This document shows, in pieces, positions 1-8,617 of a stretch of 64,000 nucleotides of DNA. The DNA lies in assembly GCA_013403045.1 (NCBI GenBank), contig GCA_013403045.1_3037.1; one strand, 5' to 3'. This DNA is from Escherichia coli O157:H7 (GTDB taxonomy: Bacteria; Pseudomonadota; Gammaproteobacteria; Enterobacterales; Enterobacteriaceae). Below the pieces are notes generated by a model, which worked only from the letters and a program-made list of their open reading frames with translations, made no database searches and was not told the DNA's origin. The position numbers and the translations under genes were made by a program. How positions within the stretch are numbered: position 1 is the first letter of the stretch; the number at the start of each line of letters is the position of its first letter.

Positions 1-40
1 TCGAAGATGTATTTGGCGATTTTCATGAGGTAACTGGTTT

Positions 41-229
41 ATGAAAGCTTACTTAGAAACAATTGTCGTGGCTCAAAAAGAAGGTGGAGATGTTTCTACT
101 TCTGTATCGCAAATCATGATTGAATTTATAGATGCATATGCTTATAATAAATTCACAGAAACTTTTGATGCTTATGAAAAAGGTCCAAAGTTTGAAATAT
201 ATCGTACTCTATTACCAATAGATTATTAA
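41..229 (+). CDS. small hypothetical protein upstream of alt
   Basis: 62-aa ORF; start overlaps the stop of a partial upstream ORF (ATGA); followed by hairpin terminator. Confidence 0.45.
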   Translation: MKAYLETIVVAQKEGGDVSTSVSQIMIEFIDAYAYNKFTETFDAYEKGPKFEIYRTLLPIDY

Positions 230-250
230 AGGCCTTCGGGCCTTTAATTT
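228..250 (+). terminator. rho-independent-like hairpin (aaggcc-ttcg-ggcctt) plus T-rich tail
   Basis: perfect stem-loop at 229-244 followed by taatttt. Confidence 0.55.
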
Positions 251-258
251 TATAAATA
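251..258 (+). promoter_or_regulatory. T4-type late promoter TATAAATA upstream of alt
   Basis: exact TATAAATA about 20 nt upstream of the alt start; AGAGG Shine-Dalgarno follows. Confidence 0.6.
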
Positions 259-278
259 GAATAAACACTAGAGAGGAT

Positions 279-2336
279 ATGATGGAACTCATTACAGAAT
301 TATTTGACGAAGATACTACTCTTCCGATTACAAACTTAAATCCAAAGAAGAAAATACCACAAATTTTTTCAGTTCATGTTGATGATGCAATTGAACAACC
401 AGGCTTTCGTTTATGTACCTATACATCTGGAGGTGATACTAATCGTGATTTAAAGATGGGCGATAAAATGATGCATATTGTTCCTTTTACATTAACTGCT
501 AAAGGTTCAATTGCTAAATTAAAAGGTCTTGGTCCAAGCCCGATTAATTATATCAATTCAGTTTTTACTGTTGCAATGCAAACAATGCGTCAATATAAAA
601 TTGATGCCTGCATGCTTCGTATTCTTAAGTCTAAAACCGCAGGTCAAGCTCGACAAATTCAACTTATTGCTGATAGACTCATCCGCAGTCGTTCAGGTGG
701 CAGATACGTCCTTCTTAAGGAACTCTGGGATTACGATAAAAAGTATGCATATATTCTTATACATCGCAAAAATGTATCACTAGAAGACATTCCAGGAGTT
801 CCGGAAATTAGTACCGAGCTCTTTACTAAAGTTGAATCGAAGGTCGGTGATGTTTATATCAATAAAGATACTGGAGCTCAAGTAACTAAAAATGAGGCAA
901 TTGCAGCATCTATTGCGCAAGAAAATGATAAACGTTCTGACCAAGCTGTAATCGTTAAAGTTAAAATTTCACGTAGAGCAATTGCGCAAAGTCAATCATT
1001 GGAATCTTCTAGATTTGAAACACCGATGTTTCAAAAATTTGAGGCTTCAGCAGCAGAATTAAATAAACCCGCTGATGCGCCTTTAATTTCCGATGCTAAC
1101 GAATTAACTGTTATTTCTACTTCAGGATTTGCATTAGAGAATGCTCTTAATAGTGTTACAGCTGGAATGGCATTCAGAGAAGCTTCTATAATTCCTGAAG
1201 ATAAAGAATCTGATGTTAATACAGAAATAAAAAATAAAGCTTTAGAAAGATTACGAAAAGAATCTATTACTTCAATAAAAACTTTAGAAACTATTGCTTC
1301 TATAGTCGATGATACTTTAGAAAAATATAAAGGTGCTTGGTTAGAAAGAAATATTAACAAGCATTCGCATTTAAATCAAGACGCTGCGAATGAGTTAGTG
1401 CAAAATTCTTGGAATGCAATAAAAACAAAGATTATTCGAAGAGAATTACGTGGATATGCTCTTACTGTTGGATGGTCATTACATTCTATAGTCGAAAATA
1501 AAGATTCATCTAAATACACACCAGCGCAAAAACGCGGAATTCGTGAATATGTAGGTTCAGGATATGTAGACATGAATAATGCTCTTTTGGGATTATATAA
1601 TCCAGATGAGCGTACAAGTATTTTAACAGCACCTGAAATAGAACAAGCCATCGATAATTTAGATTCAGCCTTTAAAAATGGTGATCGATTGCCAAAAGGT
1701 ATTACTTTATATCGTTCACAGCGAATGTTACCTTCAATATATGAAGCATTGGTAAAAAATCGAGTTTTTTATTTTAGAAATTTTGTATCAACATCATTAT
1801 ATCCAAACATTTTTGGTACTTGGATGACTGATTCAGCTGTTGGTGTTTTACCAGATGAAAAGCGTCTAAACATTTCTATCGATAAAAATGATGAAGGGCT
1901 TGTTAATTCTAGCGATAATTTAGTCGGAATTGGATGGGTTATTACTGGGGCTGATAAAGTCAATGTTGTTTTACCCGGTGGAAGTTTAGCGCCTTCAAAT
2001 GAAATGGAAGTTATTTTGCCACGTGGATTAATGGTCAAAGTTAATAAAATAACTGATGCATCTTACAATGATGGAACAGTTAAAACTAACAACAAGCTTA
2101 TTCAAGCTGAAGTTATGACCACGGAAGAGCTCACCGAATCGGTAATCTATGACGGAGACCATTTAATGGAAACTGGTGAATTGGTTGCAATGACAGGTGA
2201 TATTGAAGTAGAAGACAGAGTTGACTTTGCATCATTTGTTTCATCAAACGTTAAACAGAAAGTAGAATCATCTCTTGGAATTATTGCGTCTTGCATAGAT
2301 ATTACAAACATGCCTTACAAGTTCGTTCAAGGATAA
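279..2336 (+). CDS. alt: Alt ADP-ribosyltransferase (packaged, injected), copy 1
   Basis: 685-aa ORF (T4 Alt about 682 aa); N-terminus MELITELFDEDTTLPITNL; C-terminal R-S-E motifs (TLYRSQ, FVSTSLYP, SNEMEV); true start may be the second ATG at 282. Confidence 0.9.
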   Translation: MMELITELFDEDTTLPITNLNPKKKIPQIFSVHVDDAIEQPGFRLCTYTSGGDTNRDLKMGDKMMHIVPFTLTAKGSIAKLKGLGPSPINYINSVFTVAMQTMRQYKIDACMLRILKSKTAGQARQIQLIADRLIRSRSGGRYVLLKELWDYDKKYAYILIHRKNVSLEDIPGVPEISTELFTKVESKVGDVYINKDTGAQVTKNEAIAASIAQENDKRSDQAVIVKVKISRRAIAQSQSLESSRFETPMFQKFEASAAELNKPADAPLISDANELTVISTSGFALENALNSVTAGMAFREASIIPEDKESDVNTEIKNKALERLRKESITSIKTLETIASIVDDTLEKYKGAWLERNINKHSHLNQDAANELVQNSWNAIKTKIIRRELRGYALTVGWSLHSIVENKDSSKYTPAQKRGIREYVGSGYVDMNNALLGLYNPDERTSILTAPEIEQAIDNLDSAFKNGDRLPKGITLYRSQRMLPSIYEALVKNRVFYFRNFVSTSLYPNIFGTWMTDSAVGVLPDEKRLNISIDKNDEGLVNSSDNLVGIGWVITGADKVNVVLPGGSLAPSNEMEVILPRGLMVKVNKITDASYNDGTVKTNNKLIQAEVMTTEELTESVIYDGDHLMETGELVAMTGDIEVEDRVDFASFVSSNVKQKVESSLGIIASCIDITNMPYKFVQG

Positions 2337-2339
2337 ATC

Positions 2340-4397
2340 ATGGAACTTATTACAGAATTATTTGACGGCGCTTCGGCGCCGGTTGTTAACTTAAATCCTA
2401 AGCATAAAATACCACAAATTTTTGCTATCCAAGCCGGCGAAGAAAGCGTGCTTCCTGGATTTAGATTTTGTACATACACCTCTGGTGGTGATACAAATAA
2501 AAATGTTAAGCCAGGCGATAAAATGATGCATATCGTAATGATAGGTGTCAACGAGAAATTATCGCTGGTTAAGCTTAGAAACTTGGGTGGAAATCCAATT
2601 GGCGTCATTAATGCCGTTTTTGATACTGCTCTTCAAACAATGAAACAGTATAAAATTGACGCATGCCTATTCCGCGTACTAAAAAGTAAAACAAATGGCG
2701 CTGCTCGTCAAATGCAAGTTATTGCTGACCGTTTAGTACGTACTAAAGGAGCAGGTCGATATGTTCTTTTAAAGGAAATCTGGGATTATGATAAAAAGTA
2801 TGCATATATTATGGTTTACCGTAAAAATGCCAATTTAGAAGACATTCCAGGTGTACCTCCTATTTCAACTGAGTTATTCACAAAAGTTGAATCAAAGGTT
2901 GGTGATGTTTATGTAGACGTTAAAACAGGTAATGCTGTTCCTAAAGCTGTCGCTGTTGCTGCTTCTATTGCTTTAGAAAATGATAAGCGCACGGACCAAG
3001 CTGTTATTCAGAAAACTAAAATTAGTCGTCGATTAGCAGCACAAGCTCAATATTCTACTGTTGATGCTTCACTTCAGGGTGATAGCTTCGCTGCTAAGAA
3101 ATATCAAGAGTTTGAATCTAAAGTTCCGGTATATAAAGCAGAAGGACCAATGAACTCTGGCGTTATTCAGATTGGTTCAAACTTCAGCAAAGGAGCTATC
3201 GGTGGTATGAGGAGTGCTTCTCGTTTTAAATCTAGCGATTATGAACTAGAAAGTTTCCGAAATCATATTGCATTAGCCCATGCGCGTTTACGCGATCCAT
3301 CTATCAAGTTGCAGAGCGATACATCATATCAAGGTTCCCAGGAATATTTAAAGAATAAAGACTTCTTTAATTACAAAACTGATAAAATTTTAAGCGATCT
3401 TGCTGATATTAATATTTCTAATAGTTTTGATGTTATTAAGAAAATTATCAATGATTTAGTTAAAGGTTCTAAAGCTACACCAGATGAAAAGACAGCTATT
3501 ATTCAATTTGTAATGAATGGAATTTATAAATTAATTGATGAATCCGCTGCTCAGGCGTATGAATATGCAAGCACTGAAGTAACTCCAAAAGGATTGACTC
3601 AGGCTGAGTCTGATGTAATTGAAGATTATTGCGCAGATTCGTATGTTGAAATGAACTCATTCCTTTTAGGTAAACCTGATTCTACACGTGAAGAATATAT
3701 GGAACGAGCTATTAAACATATTGAGACGCTGGATTCTGCATTCGCTAAAGGTTCAGTTCTTCCTCCAGGAACTACACTTTACCGTGGACAAGAAGTTACT
3801 TTTAAAACTTTGCGTCATAACATTGAAAATAAAATGTTCTATTTCAAGAACTTCGTATCGACATCACTTAAACCAAATATCTTTGGTGAGTATGGTAAAA
3901 ATTATATGGCCTTAGATAATTCCGGAGCAGTATTTTCTGGTGAAGGAGAAGGTTCCGTTGATGCAGAAGATTTGATGCATATGGGTAGTCATTCTACATA
4001 TGCTAATGAAGATGCTGAAACTAGCGTGGGTATGGTAATTAAAGGAGCTGAACGAGTTAAAGTTATCGTTCCAGGTCATTTATCAGGATTTCCATCAGAA
4101 GCTGAAGTTATTCTACCACGTGGAATTTTACTGAAGATTAATAAAGTAAGTACTTACTTTATGAAAGAAACTGCTTATAACAAGTATCTAATCGAAGGTA
4201 CAATCGTTCCTCCTTCTGAACAATTAGAAGAATCAGTATATGATGGCGACCATCTAATGGAAACTGGTGAAGTTCGTCCAATGGCTGGATTTAATCAATT
4301 CCTTGTAGAAGAATCAAAAGAAGAGGAAAACGAAGTTTCTCAAATCTTAGCTTCTTTGGTTAACATCAACGGAATGTCTAAAAAGTTCAAAATGTAG
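2340..4397 (+). CDS. Alt-like ADP-ribosyltransferase paralog, copy 2
   Basis: 685-aa ORF 3 nt downstream of copy 1; same N-terminus (MELITELFDG), same R-S-E motifs (TLYRGQ, FVSTSLKP, SEAEV), divergent central region. Confidence 0.85.
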   Translation: MELITELFDGASAPVVNLNPKHKIPQIFAIQAGEESVLPGFRFCTYTSGGDTNKNVKPGDKMMHIVMIGVNEKLSLVKLRNLGGNPIGVINAVFDTALQTMKQYKIDACLFRVLKSKTNGAARQMQVIADRLVRTKGAGRYVLLKEIWDYDKKYAYIMVYRKNANLEDIPGVPPISTELFTKVESKVGDVYVDVKTGNAVPKAVAVAASIALENDKRTDQAVIQKTKISRRLAAQAQYSTVDASLQGDSFAAKKYQEFESKVPVYKAEGPMNSGVIQIGSNFSKGAIGGMRSASRFKSSDYELESFRNHIALAHARLRDPSIKLQSDTSYQGSQEYLKNKDFFNYKTDKILSDLADINISNSFDVIKKIINDLVKGSKATPDEKTAIIQFVMNGIYKLIDESAAQAYEYASTEVTPKGLTQAESDVIEDYCADSYVEMNSFLLGKPDSTREEYMERAIKHIETLDSAFAKGSVLPPGTTLYRGQEVTFKTLRHNIENKMFYFKNFVSTSLKPNIFGEYGKNYMALDNSGAVFSGEGEGSVDAEDLMHMGSHSTYANEDAETSVGMVIKGAERVKVIVPGHLSGFPSEAEVILPRGILLKINKVSTYFMKETAYNKYLIEGTIVPPSEQLEESVYDGDHLMETGEVRPMAGFNQFLVEESKEEENEVSQILASLVNINGMSKKFKM

Positions 4398-4426
4398 TTT
4401 ACAAGTCCCTCGTGTTGTGTTATAGT
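4397..4426 (+). promoter_or_regulatory. T4 early-type promoter (GTTTAC N18 TATAGT)
   Basis: -35 GTTTAC at 4397-4402, -10 TATAGT at 4421-4426, upstream of the ORF at 4458. Confidence 0.5.
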
Positions 4427-4457
4427 AGTCTTACTGACATAACATGAGGAACACAAA

Positions 4458-4748
4458 ATGAAATCTTCTTTGCGCTTTTTAGGTCAAGAACTCGTCGTTG
4501 AAGGCGTTATTCCCGCTGATAACGCTTTCAATGAAGCAGTTTACGGTGAATTTATCAAAATTTTTGGAACAGATAAAAAGTTCGGAATTTTTCCTTCTGA
4601 AAATTTTTCAAAGCCAGAACAGACTGAAAGTATTTTCCAAGGTGTAGTAACAGGTAAATTTGAGTCAGAAGCTCCGGTAAAAATTGAGGTTTATATTGAA
4701 GAAACCTCTGTTGCTTCAGTTTCTGCTTTTATTTCATTCCGTAAATAA
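4458..4748 (+). CDS. hypothetical protein
   Basis: 96-aa ORF with GAGGA Shine-Dalgarno, own early promoter, followed by bidirectional terminator. Confidence 0.5.
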   Translation: MKSSLRFLGQELVVEGVIPADNAFNEAVYGEFIKIFGTDKKFGIFPSENFSKPEQTESIFQGVVTGKFESEAPVKIEVYIEETSVASVSAFISFRK

Positions 4749-4752
4749 AAAT

Positions 4753-4774
4753 ATGGGGACCGAAAGGTCCCCAT
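4753..4774. terminator. bidirectional hairpin terminator between convergent genes
   Basis: atggggacc-gaaa-ggtccccat perfect hairpin between the ORF ending at 4748 and gene 54 ending at 4777. Confidence 0.6.
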
Positions 4775-4776
4775 TG

Positions 4777-5742
4777 TTATATTGCTCCTAATATTTTACT
4801 TTGCGAATTGACAATTCCTGTCATAGTATTAATATTTGAAATGCTTCCTGCAGTTCCCCCTAATCTACTAAGTCGTGAAAGCGAATTAGATAGTCCAGTA
4901 ACACCTCCACTATTTCCGAGAACGCTTTGAATACCATTTATAGTAGCAGATTCAAGCCATTCAAGGGCAGCTTGTCTATCAACTGCTCCAGCCTGCATGA
5001 CTCTATAAGCGAAAGTAACATCAAATGTAGTTATTTGGTTATCTCCATCATATGATAACTCAGGAGCACTCACAGATATTGGAATACAGCCAGTGAACAT
5101 CACCGCAGTATGTGGTAATCCATTGCGAGAATGAAGATTGACCTGAATATCTGCCTCGACATCTTGCGGTAAAGCACGCAATCCAGTTACTGGGTCTTGA
5201 ACAGCGTTAACCCAGTCTTGCATTGCACGATAGTTACAAGCTTCTGAATCCATTCTAAATGAAATAACCAAAGGGTCTAATTCTCTTCCAGTTATACGAA
5301 TATTAGGAGAATTATAGTTCCAGTCAGTTTCATAGGATAATCTATTCTCTGGCATTTTTACAGAATATATCATCAATCCAGATGAGTTATATGCCATGTT
5401 AAAGAAGTCAATTAAATATGTACCAACTGTAAATGAGCCTAATAAACTTTGAACTGTACGTTGACTCATGGCACCAATAAGATATTTACTAACCCCTGAT
5501 TTTCTTATCAGTTTTTGTGTGCCAGCGGTAATTAGCGTAGTAATTCCCTGATTAATATCACCTTGAGTTAATCCCAACCAATCTGAATTTAGACCCAAGT
5601 TATTATAAGCAAAGTTACTAATTGAGCTTATTAACGATGAGCTTTTAGTTGATGGAGTTGTAGCAAAAACACAGCTGAACATATTATTACGTTGGAAGTC
5701 TGCGTTTATTGCTTGATTATTAAATTCCTCTAAAGAATACAT
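4777..5742 (-). CDS. 54: baseplate tail-tube initiator gp54
   Basis: 321 aa (T4 gp54 about 320 aa); N-terminus MYSLEEFNNQAINADFQ; synteny. Confidence 0.9.
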   Translation of the reverse strand: MYSLEEFNNQAINADFQRNNMFSCVFATTPSTKSSSLISSISNFAYNNLGLNSDWLGLTQGDINQGITTLITAGTQKLIRKSGVSKYLIGAMSQRTVQSLLGSFTVGTYLIDFFNMAYNSSGLMIYSVKMPENRLSYETDWNYNSPNIRITGRELDPLVISFRMDSEACNYRAMQDWVNAVQDPVTGLRALPQDVEADIQVNLHSRNGLPHTAVMFTGCIPISVSAPELSYDGDNQITTFDVTFAYRVMQAGAVDRQAALEWLESATINGIQSVLGNSGGVTGLSNSLSRLSRLGGTAGSISNINTMTGIVNSQSKILGAI

Positions 5743-6836
5743 TAGAAAGTCCCCGTATATAAAGAAGCACGGTTTAACGTAATAATCTCTCTCATAGTAA
5801 TCTCGAGTGTAAAAGAACTTGGAAGGTTAGGAGCAATAGCTAATCCATTAAAGTTACCATTTGGTGTTTTATCAAATCTAATACTCTGTATTTGGCATGG
5901 ACCGAATACTTCAGTCTTTCCATCAAATTTAGAAGTTGCACCAAAGTTTTTCACCATCCAAATTGTCGGGTTTGAAACTACAAGAACGTTCGTTAAACTC
6001 GATGTCATTTTTTCAAATAACGTCTTGTTTTTAATCGCGTCTTCTGGCGTTAATGGTTCAATAAATGTAGAACGATACCACTCATCTAAATATCCTTTTA
6101 TTTCAGCAGCATATTGAGATTTACCAGTTTCACCGTAAGAAAAATAGTTAAAATACTGATAGATATTAATAATAGCCATTAAATCTTCTGTTGAGCGCGG
6201 AGTCAAATCCCAGGTGAACACTTTTGTTCTATTTTCAGCACCGCCATACATACTTCTAGCTGTTGTATAGATCTGTTCATTATTATCAGCCATTATTCCT
6301 TGTGTTATACTTTCAAGCGCACCAAATACTGCAGTTGAAGCCATATTACTTAGCACACCAGTAGCAGTACCTCCGCCTTTTGTAATAAGACTATCTTGAA
6401 CATCATTAAATCTATGTGATGACGTATCGACGTCAGATTTAGATCTAGGTAAAAGAATATTTGCAACAGGAACTTTACTTATTGTTCCTGAATTATTATC
6501 TGATATTAGTCCATTTGATAGTTTTGATACTGTATTACTGATAGTGTTTCTGGCTGTACGTAAAATACTCGAAGATGAAGAAGAGTAGTTAGATCTCATC
6601 GTTCTAAGACTTCCAGAATCCCTAGATGACATATTGTATGCAGTAAATAATAATCCATTCTTATATAGATCTGTTACCTGGAAGTCCCCTGTAGTGTCAT
6701 TACCACTAGCACGCCCAGTTGGAAACTGGGCTGTGTATGTTTTAGTTCCTACTTCTGATTTAGTACTCTGTCCGGCTGAAATTGTTTCACCGGACTTTTT
6801 AATTAAATCAGCAGTTATTTCTTTAACAATTGCCAT
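5742..6836 (-). CDS. 48: baseplate tail-tube cap gp48
   Basis: 364 aa, same as T4 gp48; synteny. Confidence 0.9.
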   Translation of the reverse strand: MAIVKEITADLIKKSGETISAGQSTKSEVGTKTYTAQFPTGRASGNDTTGDFQVTDLYKNGLLFTAYNMSSRDSGSLRTMRSNYSSSSSSILRTARNTISNTVSKLSNGLISDNNSGTISKVPVANILLPRSKSDVDTSSHRFNDVQDSLITKGGGTATGVLSNMASTAVFGALESITQGIMADNNEQIYTTARSMYGGAENRTKVFTWDLTPRSTEDLMAIINIYQYFNYFSYGETGKSQYAAEIKGYLDEWYRSTFIEPLTPEDAIKNKTLFEKMTSSLTNVLVVSNPTIWMVKNFGATSKFDGKTEVFGPCQIQSIRFDKTPNGNFNGLAIAPNLPSSFTLEITMREIITLNRASLYTGTF

Positions 6837-6844
6837 ATTATTCC

Positions 6845-8617
6845 TTAATTAACTCCCGTCGCACCAAATACACCAGGAGCAGTTGTGCTTGTGACAGGTG
6901 TCATATTATGAACGACAGTATTTTTCTTAATAACATTATTAGTATTATTGATTGAAGGAGATGCTTGTTGAACAGGAGCTTGTTGTGCTTTGTTCTTTTC
7001 AATCACCTGGACCTGTTTTGCTTCTGGTGATTTAGCAGAAGTTTCAGGTTTTGCTTCAGGTTGATTTTTCTTGAGCTCTTGATAAGTGGCATCAATTTTA
7101 GCAAATCTAGAAGCAAGTTCTTTTTTAACTGCTGGTGAATTATTTAAATCCGGATCATTCATTCGTTTTTTAAGGTCTTCATGAGCAGCTTCAATTGATT
7201 TAACTGTCGAGTCTTTGCTCATATCAGCTGAATCAGCGTATTTTTCAAAACGAATCATCGCAGCACGAGCTTCATTAGCTTTCATTAAAGCATTTTTTCT
7301 TTCTTCCGGTGAAAGTTGTTTTAATTTTTCTTCTTCTGCTGCACGTTCTTCGTCAGTAGTCAATGCTTCTTTATTATCTACACCACGAATCCAGTTAGAT
7401 GCACGAGTTTTCCAGTTCGCAATTTTGTCTAATCCTTTTGCTATTGGGCCAAGATCATCATTCATTCGTTTATCTTGATAATTTGCTACTTTTTCTTGGT
7501 CTTCTTTATTAAGAGATGCTCCAGTAGAATTTTGGAAATTTTCTAATGCTCTTCCTTCTACTTCATCAGCAGTATCCTTCATGCCAGGAATGACTCGAAG
7601 AATTGCTGCAGATAATTTAGCCATACCTAATTGAATAAGCTCTCCTAAATTATAAAGAACACTTCCAAGCCCTTCAACAATAGCTACTGTTAATCCGCCC
7701 CAATCTCCAGCTTCCCAGAACTTTTTAATTTCATCAATAGAATCAAAGATGCTCTGTAATAAAGGACCCCATGTTCCGGTTTCGCTAGAGAATTTAGTAA
7801 AATCAGTGCTAAATAAATCCCAGGCTTTTGAAAATTTATCTGACCAGTATTTAAAATGAACCATCAGCAGGTCTATTCCAATAACAACAGCCATTATCAA
7901 TGCAACCATTTTAGCAGCTTCAATAGCAGCACTGACGGTATACTTAAATAGCATACTAGATATTTTATCAGTAATTGAAATAGATTTCTTAAATCCGAAA
8001 TCAACTGTCTTTGTTAATTTATCTAAAGCTTGAGATAATTTTAAGTTAAATGCGTCTCTTTTTTGCTTCTCTTCTGGAGACTCTTGTTTTGGTTCAATTG
8101 GCTGAGGAGTAGGGAAAAAATCAGCATCAGGATCATTATTAACTGCTTCAGGAGCCGGTAATAAAGGACCCACAGATTCAGCTGTATCATCCTCGACGAC
8201 TTTAACAGGAATAGCATTTTCGACTACTGCTAAACTCGTTCCAGTTTGCTGAATTCCAGCTGTCTGAATTTTTTGTTCCAGTAAACTTGTTAATTTATCT
8301 AATTTGCTTCCGAGCGATTCACCGATTTCTTTATTAATATTGTTTCCAATTTCAACAGTTTCAGCAATTAACTCAGAACCGGCAGTAGTATCACTTACTG
8401 CGCTTTCAACGTTATCAATTGCTCCAACTATTTCATTTGATTTTTCTTCAACAGTCTGAGCTATTAATTCAGAAGCAGCTTGAGCATCATCTAATTTTGT
8501 AGAAATGTCATTAAGACCAGATAAAGTATTAGAAGCGGATTTAGCCGCTTCCTGTGTTGGTTTATTATCTGAAATAACTTTTCTACGCATCGTTTGCATT
8601 TCTTGTGGCTTTTTCAT
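6845..8617 (-). CDS. 29: tail tape measure / baseplate hub gp29
   Basis: 590 aa, same as T4 gp29; synteny. Confidence 0.9.
   Translation of the reverse strand: MKKPQEMQTMRRKVISDNKPTQEAAKSASNTLSGLNDISTKLDDAQAASELIAQTVEEKSNEIVGAIDNVESAVSDTTAGSELIAETVEIGNNINKEIGESLGSKLDKLTSLLEQKIQTAGIQQTGTSLAVVENAIPVKVVEDDTAESVGPLLPAPEAVNNDPDADFFPTPQPIEPKQESPEEKQKRDAFNLKLSQALDKLTKTVDFGFKKSISITDKISSMLFKYTVSAAIEAAKMVALIMAVVIGIDLLMVHFKYWSDKFSKAWDLFSTDFTKFSSETGTWGPLLQSIFDSIDEIKKFWEAGDWGGLTVAIVEGLGSVLYNLGELIQLGMAKLSAAILRVIPGMKDTADEVEGRALENFQNSTGASLNKEDQEKVANYQDKRMNDDLGPIAKGLDKIANWKTRASNWIRGVDNKEALTTDEERAAEEEKLKQLSPEERKNALMKANEARAAMIRFEKYADSADMSKDSTVKSIEAAHEDLKKRMNDPDLNNSPAVKKELASRFAKIDATYQELKKNQPEAKPETSAKSPEAKQVQVIEKNKAQQAPVQQASPSINNTNNVIKKNTVVHNMTPVTSTTAPGVFGATGVN

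Follow-up and report, generated by a model that had tools for sequence, protein, structure and literature searches.

What does the second of two tandem, full-length Alt-type ADP-ribosyltransferase genes do, and does its product reach the host cell together with the phage DNA? The question is raised by positions 279 to 4,397 of a 64,000-nucleotide stretch of DNA, referred to here as the window (contig GCA_013403045.1_3037.1 of the Escherichia coli O157:H7 assembly GCA_013403045.1). Over its first 5 kb, the window matches the reverse strand of Escherichia phage AR1 (AP011113 / NC_027983) with 100% identity; in that genome both genes carry the annotation alt and the gene order is ligase, alt.1, alt, alt, alt.-3, gene 54. 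This region represents the alt locus of AR1, a Tequatrovirus closely related to T4, in the two-gene form that is common in the genus. The pair consists of alt (gene 1), the orthologue of T4 Alt, followed by alt2 (gene 2), an ancient paralogue. The locus between DNA ligase/alt.1 and alt.-3/gene 54 is conserved across the related phages compared. We consider it probable that the two genes together encode late-made, packaged and injected arginine-specific enzymes that are processed by the prohead protease gp21 and have partly different substrates.

The two open reading frames (ORFs) lie on the plus strand at 279..2336 (685 residues, starting MMELITELFD) and 2340..4397 (685 residues, starting MELITELFD). 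The TAA stop codon of gene 1 at 2334-2336 is followed by ATC and then by the gene 2 ATG at 2340, so that the ORF list and the sequence bear out the lengths, the 3-nt spacing and the common MELITELFD of the initial annotation. The Shine-Dalgarno sequence GAGG at 273-276 is 5 nt from ATG 282 and only 2 nt from ATG 279. Because of this spacing, and because T4 Alt is annotated from MELITE, the second ATG at 282 is the likely start of gene 1, and its residues are numbered from there. Along their whole length, both proteins match phrog_802, 'Alt-like RNA polymerase ADP-ribosyltransferase' (residues 1-685, 674 profile positions), with E = 1e-263 for gene 1 and E = 9e-256 for gene 2. The Pfam family PF03496 (ADPrib_exo_Tox, gathering cut-off 23.4 bits) is found in gene 1 with E = 4e-34 and 118.1 bits and in gene 2 with E = 7e-20 and 71.7 bits, while an NCBIfam scan of both proteins gives no matches. 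All of the R-S-E motifs quoted earlier are present, and the catalytic Arg, S-T-S and E-x-E are intact in both genes. On every sequence-level count both belong to the R-S-E ADP-ribosyltransferase family and to the Alt family. The pairwise protein alignment that had been proposed gives 42% identity over the whole length (BLASTP, E = 6e-160), a resemblance that, judged from this alignment, is not due to chance.

Residues Arg482, Ser507, Ser509, Glu587 and Glu589 of Alt2, and the corresponding catalytic residues of gene 1, are invariant in a 16-sequence alignment that extends down to 42% identity. The initial annotation had allowed for a second copy that has lost its catalytic residues; this one has kept R482, the S-T-S motif and E-x-E. 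The E-A-E of Alt2 aligns with the E-Y-E of the arginine-specific iota-like enzymes CPILE-a/BECa and with the Q-Y-E of a C3-like enzyme, and the E-M-E of gene 1 falls on the same positions in the profile alignment. By analogy, the E-x-E signature, rather than Q-x-E, predicts that Alt2 is arginine-specific. Only gene 2 was modelled. Its AlphaFold2 model has a mean predicted local distance difference test (pLDDT) score of 74.7 and contains an alpha/beta N-domain (residues ~12-215), a helical region (~230-415), an ADP-ribosyltransferase (ART) domain (~420-622, pLDDT about 75-90) and a disordered tail from residue 629. Foldseek comparison of this model with the PDB retrieves Vis, C3bot, Certhrax, CDTa and VIP2 with probability 1.00, E values of 1e-8 to 1e-5 and a target template modelling (TM) score of about 0.6, and the predicted fold is C3/Vis/iota-like. 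A single-sequence search of PDB sequences with Alt2 yields only a marginal match to Vis (E = 0.73); a profile search is clearer and still gives partial matches.

The second gene is widespread. Counts are from a phage collection; for the gene bodies, the T4 junction and the AR1-like combination, a record is counted when at least 80% of the query is covered in one place. They include RefSeq/GenBank duplicates and mosaic alleles, so they are to be read as proportions and are not additive (119 AR1-like and 91 T4-type records exceed the 175 type A records, for example). Alt homologues occur at 1,832 places in 1,223 phage records, and the 5-kb locus has some match in 532. The gene 2 body (window 3040-4397) is found in 402 records, including T2, RB3 and RB10, all at 90% nucleotide identity or above, and about 400 of about 530 related records have an uninterrupted 685-codon alt2 frame. 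The AR1-like combination of type A alt with alt2 accounts for 119. The second alt is labelled 'alt.-2' in RB5 (AIT73201) and 'ADP-ribosyltransferase Alt2' in Bas43 (QXV84768), and paralogous duplications beside alt in RB49, 44RR and T4 have been described (Nolan et al. 2006, PMC1524935). The two-gene arrangement is already known: hundreds of genomes carry it in their annotation, and the duplication is mentioned both in the T4 record and in the 2006 comparative paper. As a novelty the pair is not supported, since in terms of distribution both copies are standard in close T4 relatives, an outcome that the initial annotation had listed as counting against its reading.

T4 itself is the atypical phage at this locus, a natural alt2 deletion mutant. 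In a blastn comparison, the T4 locus is collinear with window positions 1-2687 and 4378-4792, and the junction lies at about 5100 of the T4 stretch compared. The deletion removes codons ~117-680 of alt2. When aligned to the gene 2 product, the T4 proteins Alt.-1 and Alt.-2 (NP_049810, NP_049809) cover its residues 1-56 and 62-117, and their genes together correspond to window 2340..2687, the first ~116 codons, at about 95% nucleotide identity; the remnant is split into two ORFs by the loss of 1 nt in an A-run. The PHROGs of alt.-1 and alt.-2 match gene 2 at 2e-40 and 1e-37 and gene 1 at 1e-21 and 2e-19. The T4 GenBank record interprets alt.-1 and alt.-2 as the trace of an old duplication that involved the beginning of alt. 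The statement that T4 has a single alt gene is right for functional copies, and incomplete in that ~116 codons of the second gene remain as alt.-1/alt.-2. The junction is contiguous in 91 records, many of them non-T4 isolates. An origin of the deletion in laboratory propagation was considered and rejected, the same junction being found in many independent isolates.

Where alt2 is present it is under strong constraint. Three orthologue pairs (AR1, RB5, Bas43) give ratios of nonsynonymous to synonymous substitution rates (dN/dS) of 0.020-0.042 at synonymous distances (dS) of 0.15-0.18, with constraint in every segment of the protein, and at the sequence level Alt2 looks functional. That alt2 is instead a decaying duplicate without a function of its own, heading for loss as in T4, is disfavoured and can hardly be credited. 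Several independent deletions or fusions at the locus (the T4 type and those of phages KAW1E185 and sutha) are what one would cite for it; against them stand the intact 685-codon frame in about 400 records, dN/dS values of 0.02-0.04 and the invariance of all catalytic residues.

The two proteins are unequally diverged along their length. Identity between Alt and Alt2 is 67% for residues 1-238, 20% for 239-415, 35% for the catalytic domain (416-625) and 42% for the tail. The initial annotation had placed strong divergence at residues 230-520; the centre is indeed divergent, but not uniformly, the divergence being focused at 239-415. In the catalytic domain, the loop that leads into E-x-E is GHLSGFPSEAE in Alt2 against GGSLAPSNEME in Alt, and Alt2 has a different and longer insertion between S-T-S and E-x-E and a shorter C-terminal tail. 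The dS between alt and alt2 is about 1.5, which is saturated. Dhakavirus WG01 carries three Alt paralogues in tandem at the same locus (1012-7124), with 631, 693 and 707 residues, of which the last is the alt2 orthologue (49% identity), likewise in the distal position, and the middle one resembles type B alt (66%). By these comparisons, the paralogues have been kept separate since before the Tequatrovirus-Dhakavirus split. Recent gene conversion between alt and alt2 was also considered and rejected; the N-terminal DNA is only 67-73% identical and dS is about 1.5.

Because the middle domain and the active-site loops differ, Alt2 most likely modifies a set of host proteins partly different from that of Alt. 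The same comparison bears on the alternative that Alt2 is a redundant second dose, packaged and injected with the same targets as Alt (Arg265 of the RNA polymerase alpha subunit, and others), so that the pair merely raises or secures the amount of enzyme delivered. The domain plan, the N-terminal propeptide, the catalytic motifs and the E-x-E signature are all alike, T4 and 90 other records do without alt2, and one chimeric gene is enough in KAW1E185. We regard simple redundancy as unlikely all the same: the paralogues have been apart since before the two genera separated, with saturated dS, no more than 20% of middle-domain and 35% of catalytic-domain residues are identical, the S-T-S to E-x-E insertions differ, and sequence specific to alt2 is under strong purifying selection. 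Pure redundancy rarely keeps such divergence.

Delivery of Alt2 can be judged against T4 Alt, a head (prohead-core) protein present in about 40 copies, which is injected with the DNA; its targets are Arg265 on one of the RNA polymerase alpha subunits and various other proteins of the host (PMC2988021; PMC9026906). The protease gp21 trims T4 Alt at both ends, removing six residues after ITE-6 and 63 after LTE-619, as determined by mass spectrometry (PMC5694885). In Alt2 the glutamate of the corresponding C-terminal position, E631, is invariant in 16 sequences, and pLDDT in the model falls below 50 from residue 629. The family formed by the Alt N-domain is small (1.8 billion proteins yield 69 clusters at 50% identity), and the domain is nearly always joined to an ART domain. 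At motif level, the MELITELFD terminus, the LEE-631 column, the predicted disorder from that point and the Alt N-domain argue that Alt2 would follow the Alt route into the head. It is quite improbable, in our estimate, that Alt2 is active and stays out of the virion, acting late in the producing cell on host or phage proteins. Expression from a late promoter would suit such a role, and the literature searches found no proteomic report of Alt2 in virions, but Alt2 shares its N-terminus and N-domain with packaged Alt, carries L-x-E at both gp21 positions, and has an N-domain nearly confined to Alt-type proteins. The proposal in the initial annotation of a further enzyme that is packaged, injected and directed at other targets is plausible, and as read from the sequences the gp21 motifs and the purifying selection strengthen it.

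Two further observations concern the ends of these proteins. Located just 3' of the C-terminal gp21 site, the motif YDGDHLMETGE (4242-4271 in gene 2 and 2151-2180 in gene 1) does not vary within the family. This invariance in a propeptide that is removed suggests a role in core targeting or activity control. Separately, proteins P0183 (485 residues) and P0184 (541 residues) are distant relatives of the Alt N-domain without a Pfam ART domain; in these the Alt carrier domain may be fused to something else.

Transcription of the pair appears to depend on one late promoter. The T4-type late consensus TATAAATA at 251-258 is an exact match and the sole plus-strand copy within 1-5000, as had been claimed for gene 1 alone; the whole window contains 23 copies against 9.9 expected. 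No exact TATAAATA and no convincing terminator were found at 259-4397 by consensus and terminator scans. Because no late consensus, terminator or gap precedes gene 2, co-transcription of alt and alt2 from 251-258, as first proposed, is the simplest model on sequence grounds. A separate gene 2 promoter was sought and rejected: the only candidates are one-mismatch variants of TATAAATA at 857 and 1509, deep within gene 1, and these are not typical late promoters. Matches of sigma-70 type occur at the level of shuffled sequence (19 vs 18.9). In the WG01 alt locus no exact TATAAATA is found upstream. Hairpins flank the unit on both sides. The upstream one was read from the sequence and is absent from the output of the simple terminator scan, and the KAW1E185 record marks a 'putative transcriptional terminator' at the matching position. 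The downstream one, whose counterpart is an annotated terminator in KAW1E185, would by its sequence end an alt-alt2(-alt.-3) transcript.

These features can be assembled into a sequence of events. The two genes would be transcribed as one late message, and ribosomes would start on alt2 at a Shine-Dalgarno sequence of its own within the last codons of alt. Each product would consist of four parts: an N-terminal propeptide with a carrier domain, a helical middle, a C3/iota-like catalytic domain and a disordered C-terminal propeptide. Both probably enter the prohead core, where gp21 would trim them after ITE-6 and after LTE-619 (Alt) or LEE-631 (Alt2). Both would stay in the head, enter the host with the DNA and carry out NAD+-dependent mono-ADP-ribosylation of host protein arginines before any phage gene is expressed. 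Coordinates of the features involved are given in Table 1.

Table 1. Features of the alt locus in the window (positions from the first nucleotide of the window)
Feature	Position	Strand	Basis or remarks
alt2 (gene 2; 'alt.-2' or 'Alt2' elsewhere)	2340..4397	+	Full-length form of T4 alt.-1 + alt.-2
ITE-6 motif of Alt2	2349..2357	+	N-terminus MELITELFD same as Alt
Alt-family N-terminal alpha/beta domain of Alt2, residues 1-238	2340..3053	+	67% identical between the genes
Helical middle domain of Alt2, residues ~239-415	3054..3584	+	Helices 250-414, pLDDT about 75-90; 20% identity to Alt
ADP-ribosyltransferase domain of Alt2, residues ~416-625	3585..4214	+	Pfam stretch 416-620; Foldseek
Catalytic Arg482 of Alt2, within TLYR 479-482	3783..3785	+	Invariant; aligns with the Vis Arg
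S507-T-S509 of Alt2	3858..3866	+	Aligns with Vis toxin
E587-A-E589 of Alt2	4098..4106	+	Surrounding DNA (GAAGCTGAAGTTATTCTACC...) is a near-identical patch common to type B alt
LEE-631 (629-631), predicted C-terminal gp21 site of Alt2	4224..4232	+	Column aligned with LTE-619 of Alt
alt (gene 1), T4 Alt orthologue	282..2336, also readable from 279	+	About 96-97% amino acid identity to NP_049811
ITE-6, N-terminal gp21 prohead-protease motif of Alt	291..299	+	
Catalytic Arg478 of gene 1, within TLYR 475-478	1713..1715	+	Invariant column
S503-T-S505 of gene 1	1788..1796	+	Motif position and alignment
E574-M-E576 of gene 1, then VILPRG	2001..2009	+	
LTE-619 (617-619), C-terminal gp21 motif of Alt	2130..2138	+	
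Allelic cassette of gene 1 (helical middle and most of catalytic domain)	980..2090	+	
Late promoter, T4-type consensus TATAAATA	251..258	+	Exact match, 24 nt upstream of ATG 282
Gene 2 Shine-Dalgarno AAGGA	2329..2333	+	Within last gene 1 codons; 6 nt before gene 2 ATG
Terminator-like hairpin AAAGGCC-TTCG-GGCCTTT and T-rich run	228..245	+	Read from sequence; after alt.1, before late promoter
Bidirectional terminator hairpin between alt.-3 and gene 54	4753..4774	both	9 pairs, 6 G-C
Sigma-70/T4-early-like promoter GTTTACA, 17 nt, TG-TATAGT	4398..4426	+	Consensus match only, 10/12 and extended TG
Segment missing in T4, 1,690 bp	2688..4377	+	9-nt direct repeats CTAAAAAGT at 2679-2687 and 4369-4377
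alt.1	41..229		Upstream of terminator-like hairpin and late promoter
alt.-3 (DUF5498)	4458..4748		Downstream of alt2

Several points weigh against this course of events. T4 alt is itself non-essential (PMC9026906), and alt2 is not needed under every condition: the 1.69-kb deletion is found in T4 and in 90 further records. KAW1E185 has fused both genes into one, and sutha keeps only a 38-codon tail of alt2. The late promoter and the gp21 sites are consensus matches only, and L-x-E tripeptides are common, with 7-8 in each protein. Literature searches found no virion proteomics, enzymology or genetics of Alt2, and sequence divergence alone is no proof of different substrates.

The more polymorphic of the two genes is, unexpectedly, gene 1. 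Its central cassette of ~1.1 kb occurs as 'type A' in AR1 and T4 and as 'type B' in RB3, RB5, T6 and Bas43; the type A gene 1 body is found in 175 records and the type B body in 331. Amino acid identity between A and B is 100% for residues 1-238, 34% for 239-400, 59% for 401-575 and 93% for 576-684. In a sliding comparison of DNA identity the corresponding RB5 stretch is 3440-4500, with near-identical flanks, and the sequence pattern looks like that of a swapped cassette. Phage KAW1E185 has a single chimeric alt (4303-6360), which is type B up to E-x-E-VILPRG and continues as the alt2 tail. The crossover lies within a patch of 25-30 nt that is identical in both parents and encodes E-A-E-VILPRG; in the window the patch is at 4098-4124 and 2001-2027. 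On these sequence comparisons, the alt locus is recombinationally mosaic: cassettes have been exchanged, genes fused and copy numbers altered, with conserved segments as the anchors.

A wider reading can be offered tentatively, and we would put it a little short of an even chance as a whole: the alt locus may act as a polymorphic-effector locus of T-even phages. The N-terminal carrier and the propeptides would serve as head-packaging signals and, together with segments such as the 25-30-nt E-x-E-VILPRG patch, as recombination anchors. Cassettes combining target recognition and catalysis, of which there would be at least three types in Tequatrovirus, would be shuffled, duplicated (one to three tandem genes), fused and deleted. 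Most T-even phages would then inject two differently targeted ADP-ribosyltransferases, and Alt2 would have substrates of its own, possibly host defence or toxin-antitoxin proteins, that have gone unnoticed because T4, the phage used as the model, has naturally lost alt2.

The nucleotide that follows the alt2 stop codon is the first of an early-type promoter match located upstream of alt.-3 (Table 1). T4 has kept this match, immediately beyond the point of deletion.

Injected ADP-ribosylation in T-even infection is known almost wholly from T4, a deletion derivative at the alt locus, and a second, well-conserved Alt paralogue is present in about three quarters of sequenced Tequatrovirus records. 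Our literature searches returned no functional study of it. Should Alt2 prove to be injected and to act on targets of its own, the immediate-early modification of host proteins in most T-even phages, T2 and many therapy phages included, would be broader than the textbook picture drawn from T4. The pair is not a new kind of system; it marks a well-defined and easily testable gap in knowledge.

The closest known systems place the pair as follows. Gene 1 is the orthologue of T4 Alt (NP_049811) at the same locus. Gene 2 is like T4 Alt in length, in its four-part architecture, in MELITELFD, in the R / S-T-S / E-x-E residues and in both gp21 positions, but its overall identity to Alt is no more than 42%, falling to 20% in the helical middle domain. 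T4 alt.-1/alt.-2 are the same gene as gene 2 in the same position, between alt and alt.-3; in the window the gene is intact. The RB5 (AIT73201) and Bas43 (QXV84768) proteins are gene 2 orthologues, 98-99% identical in amino acid sequence and of the same length and position. These phages differ in the upstream alt, which has the type B cassette (697-698 residues), whereas AR1 has the T4 type. ModA and ModB of T4 are likewise phage R-S-E mono-ADP-ribosyltransferases encoded by a tandem gene pair, and their target ranges differ, ModA modifying RNA polymerase alpha and ModB other proteins as well as performing RNAylation. They are small, early and unpackaged enzymes, and have no Alt N-domain, middle domain or propeptides. 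The C3-like and iota/VIP2/Vis toxins (PF03496) have the same catalytic fold and motifs, with E-x-E in the arginine-specific members. Identity is only about 15-20%, their delivery is by secretion or binary-toxin translocation and does not involve a phage head, and they carry no Alt N-domain.

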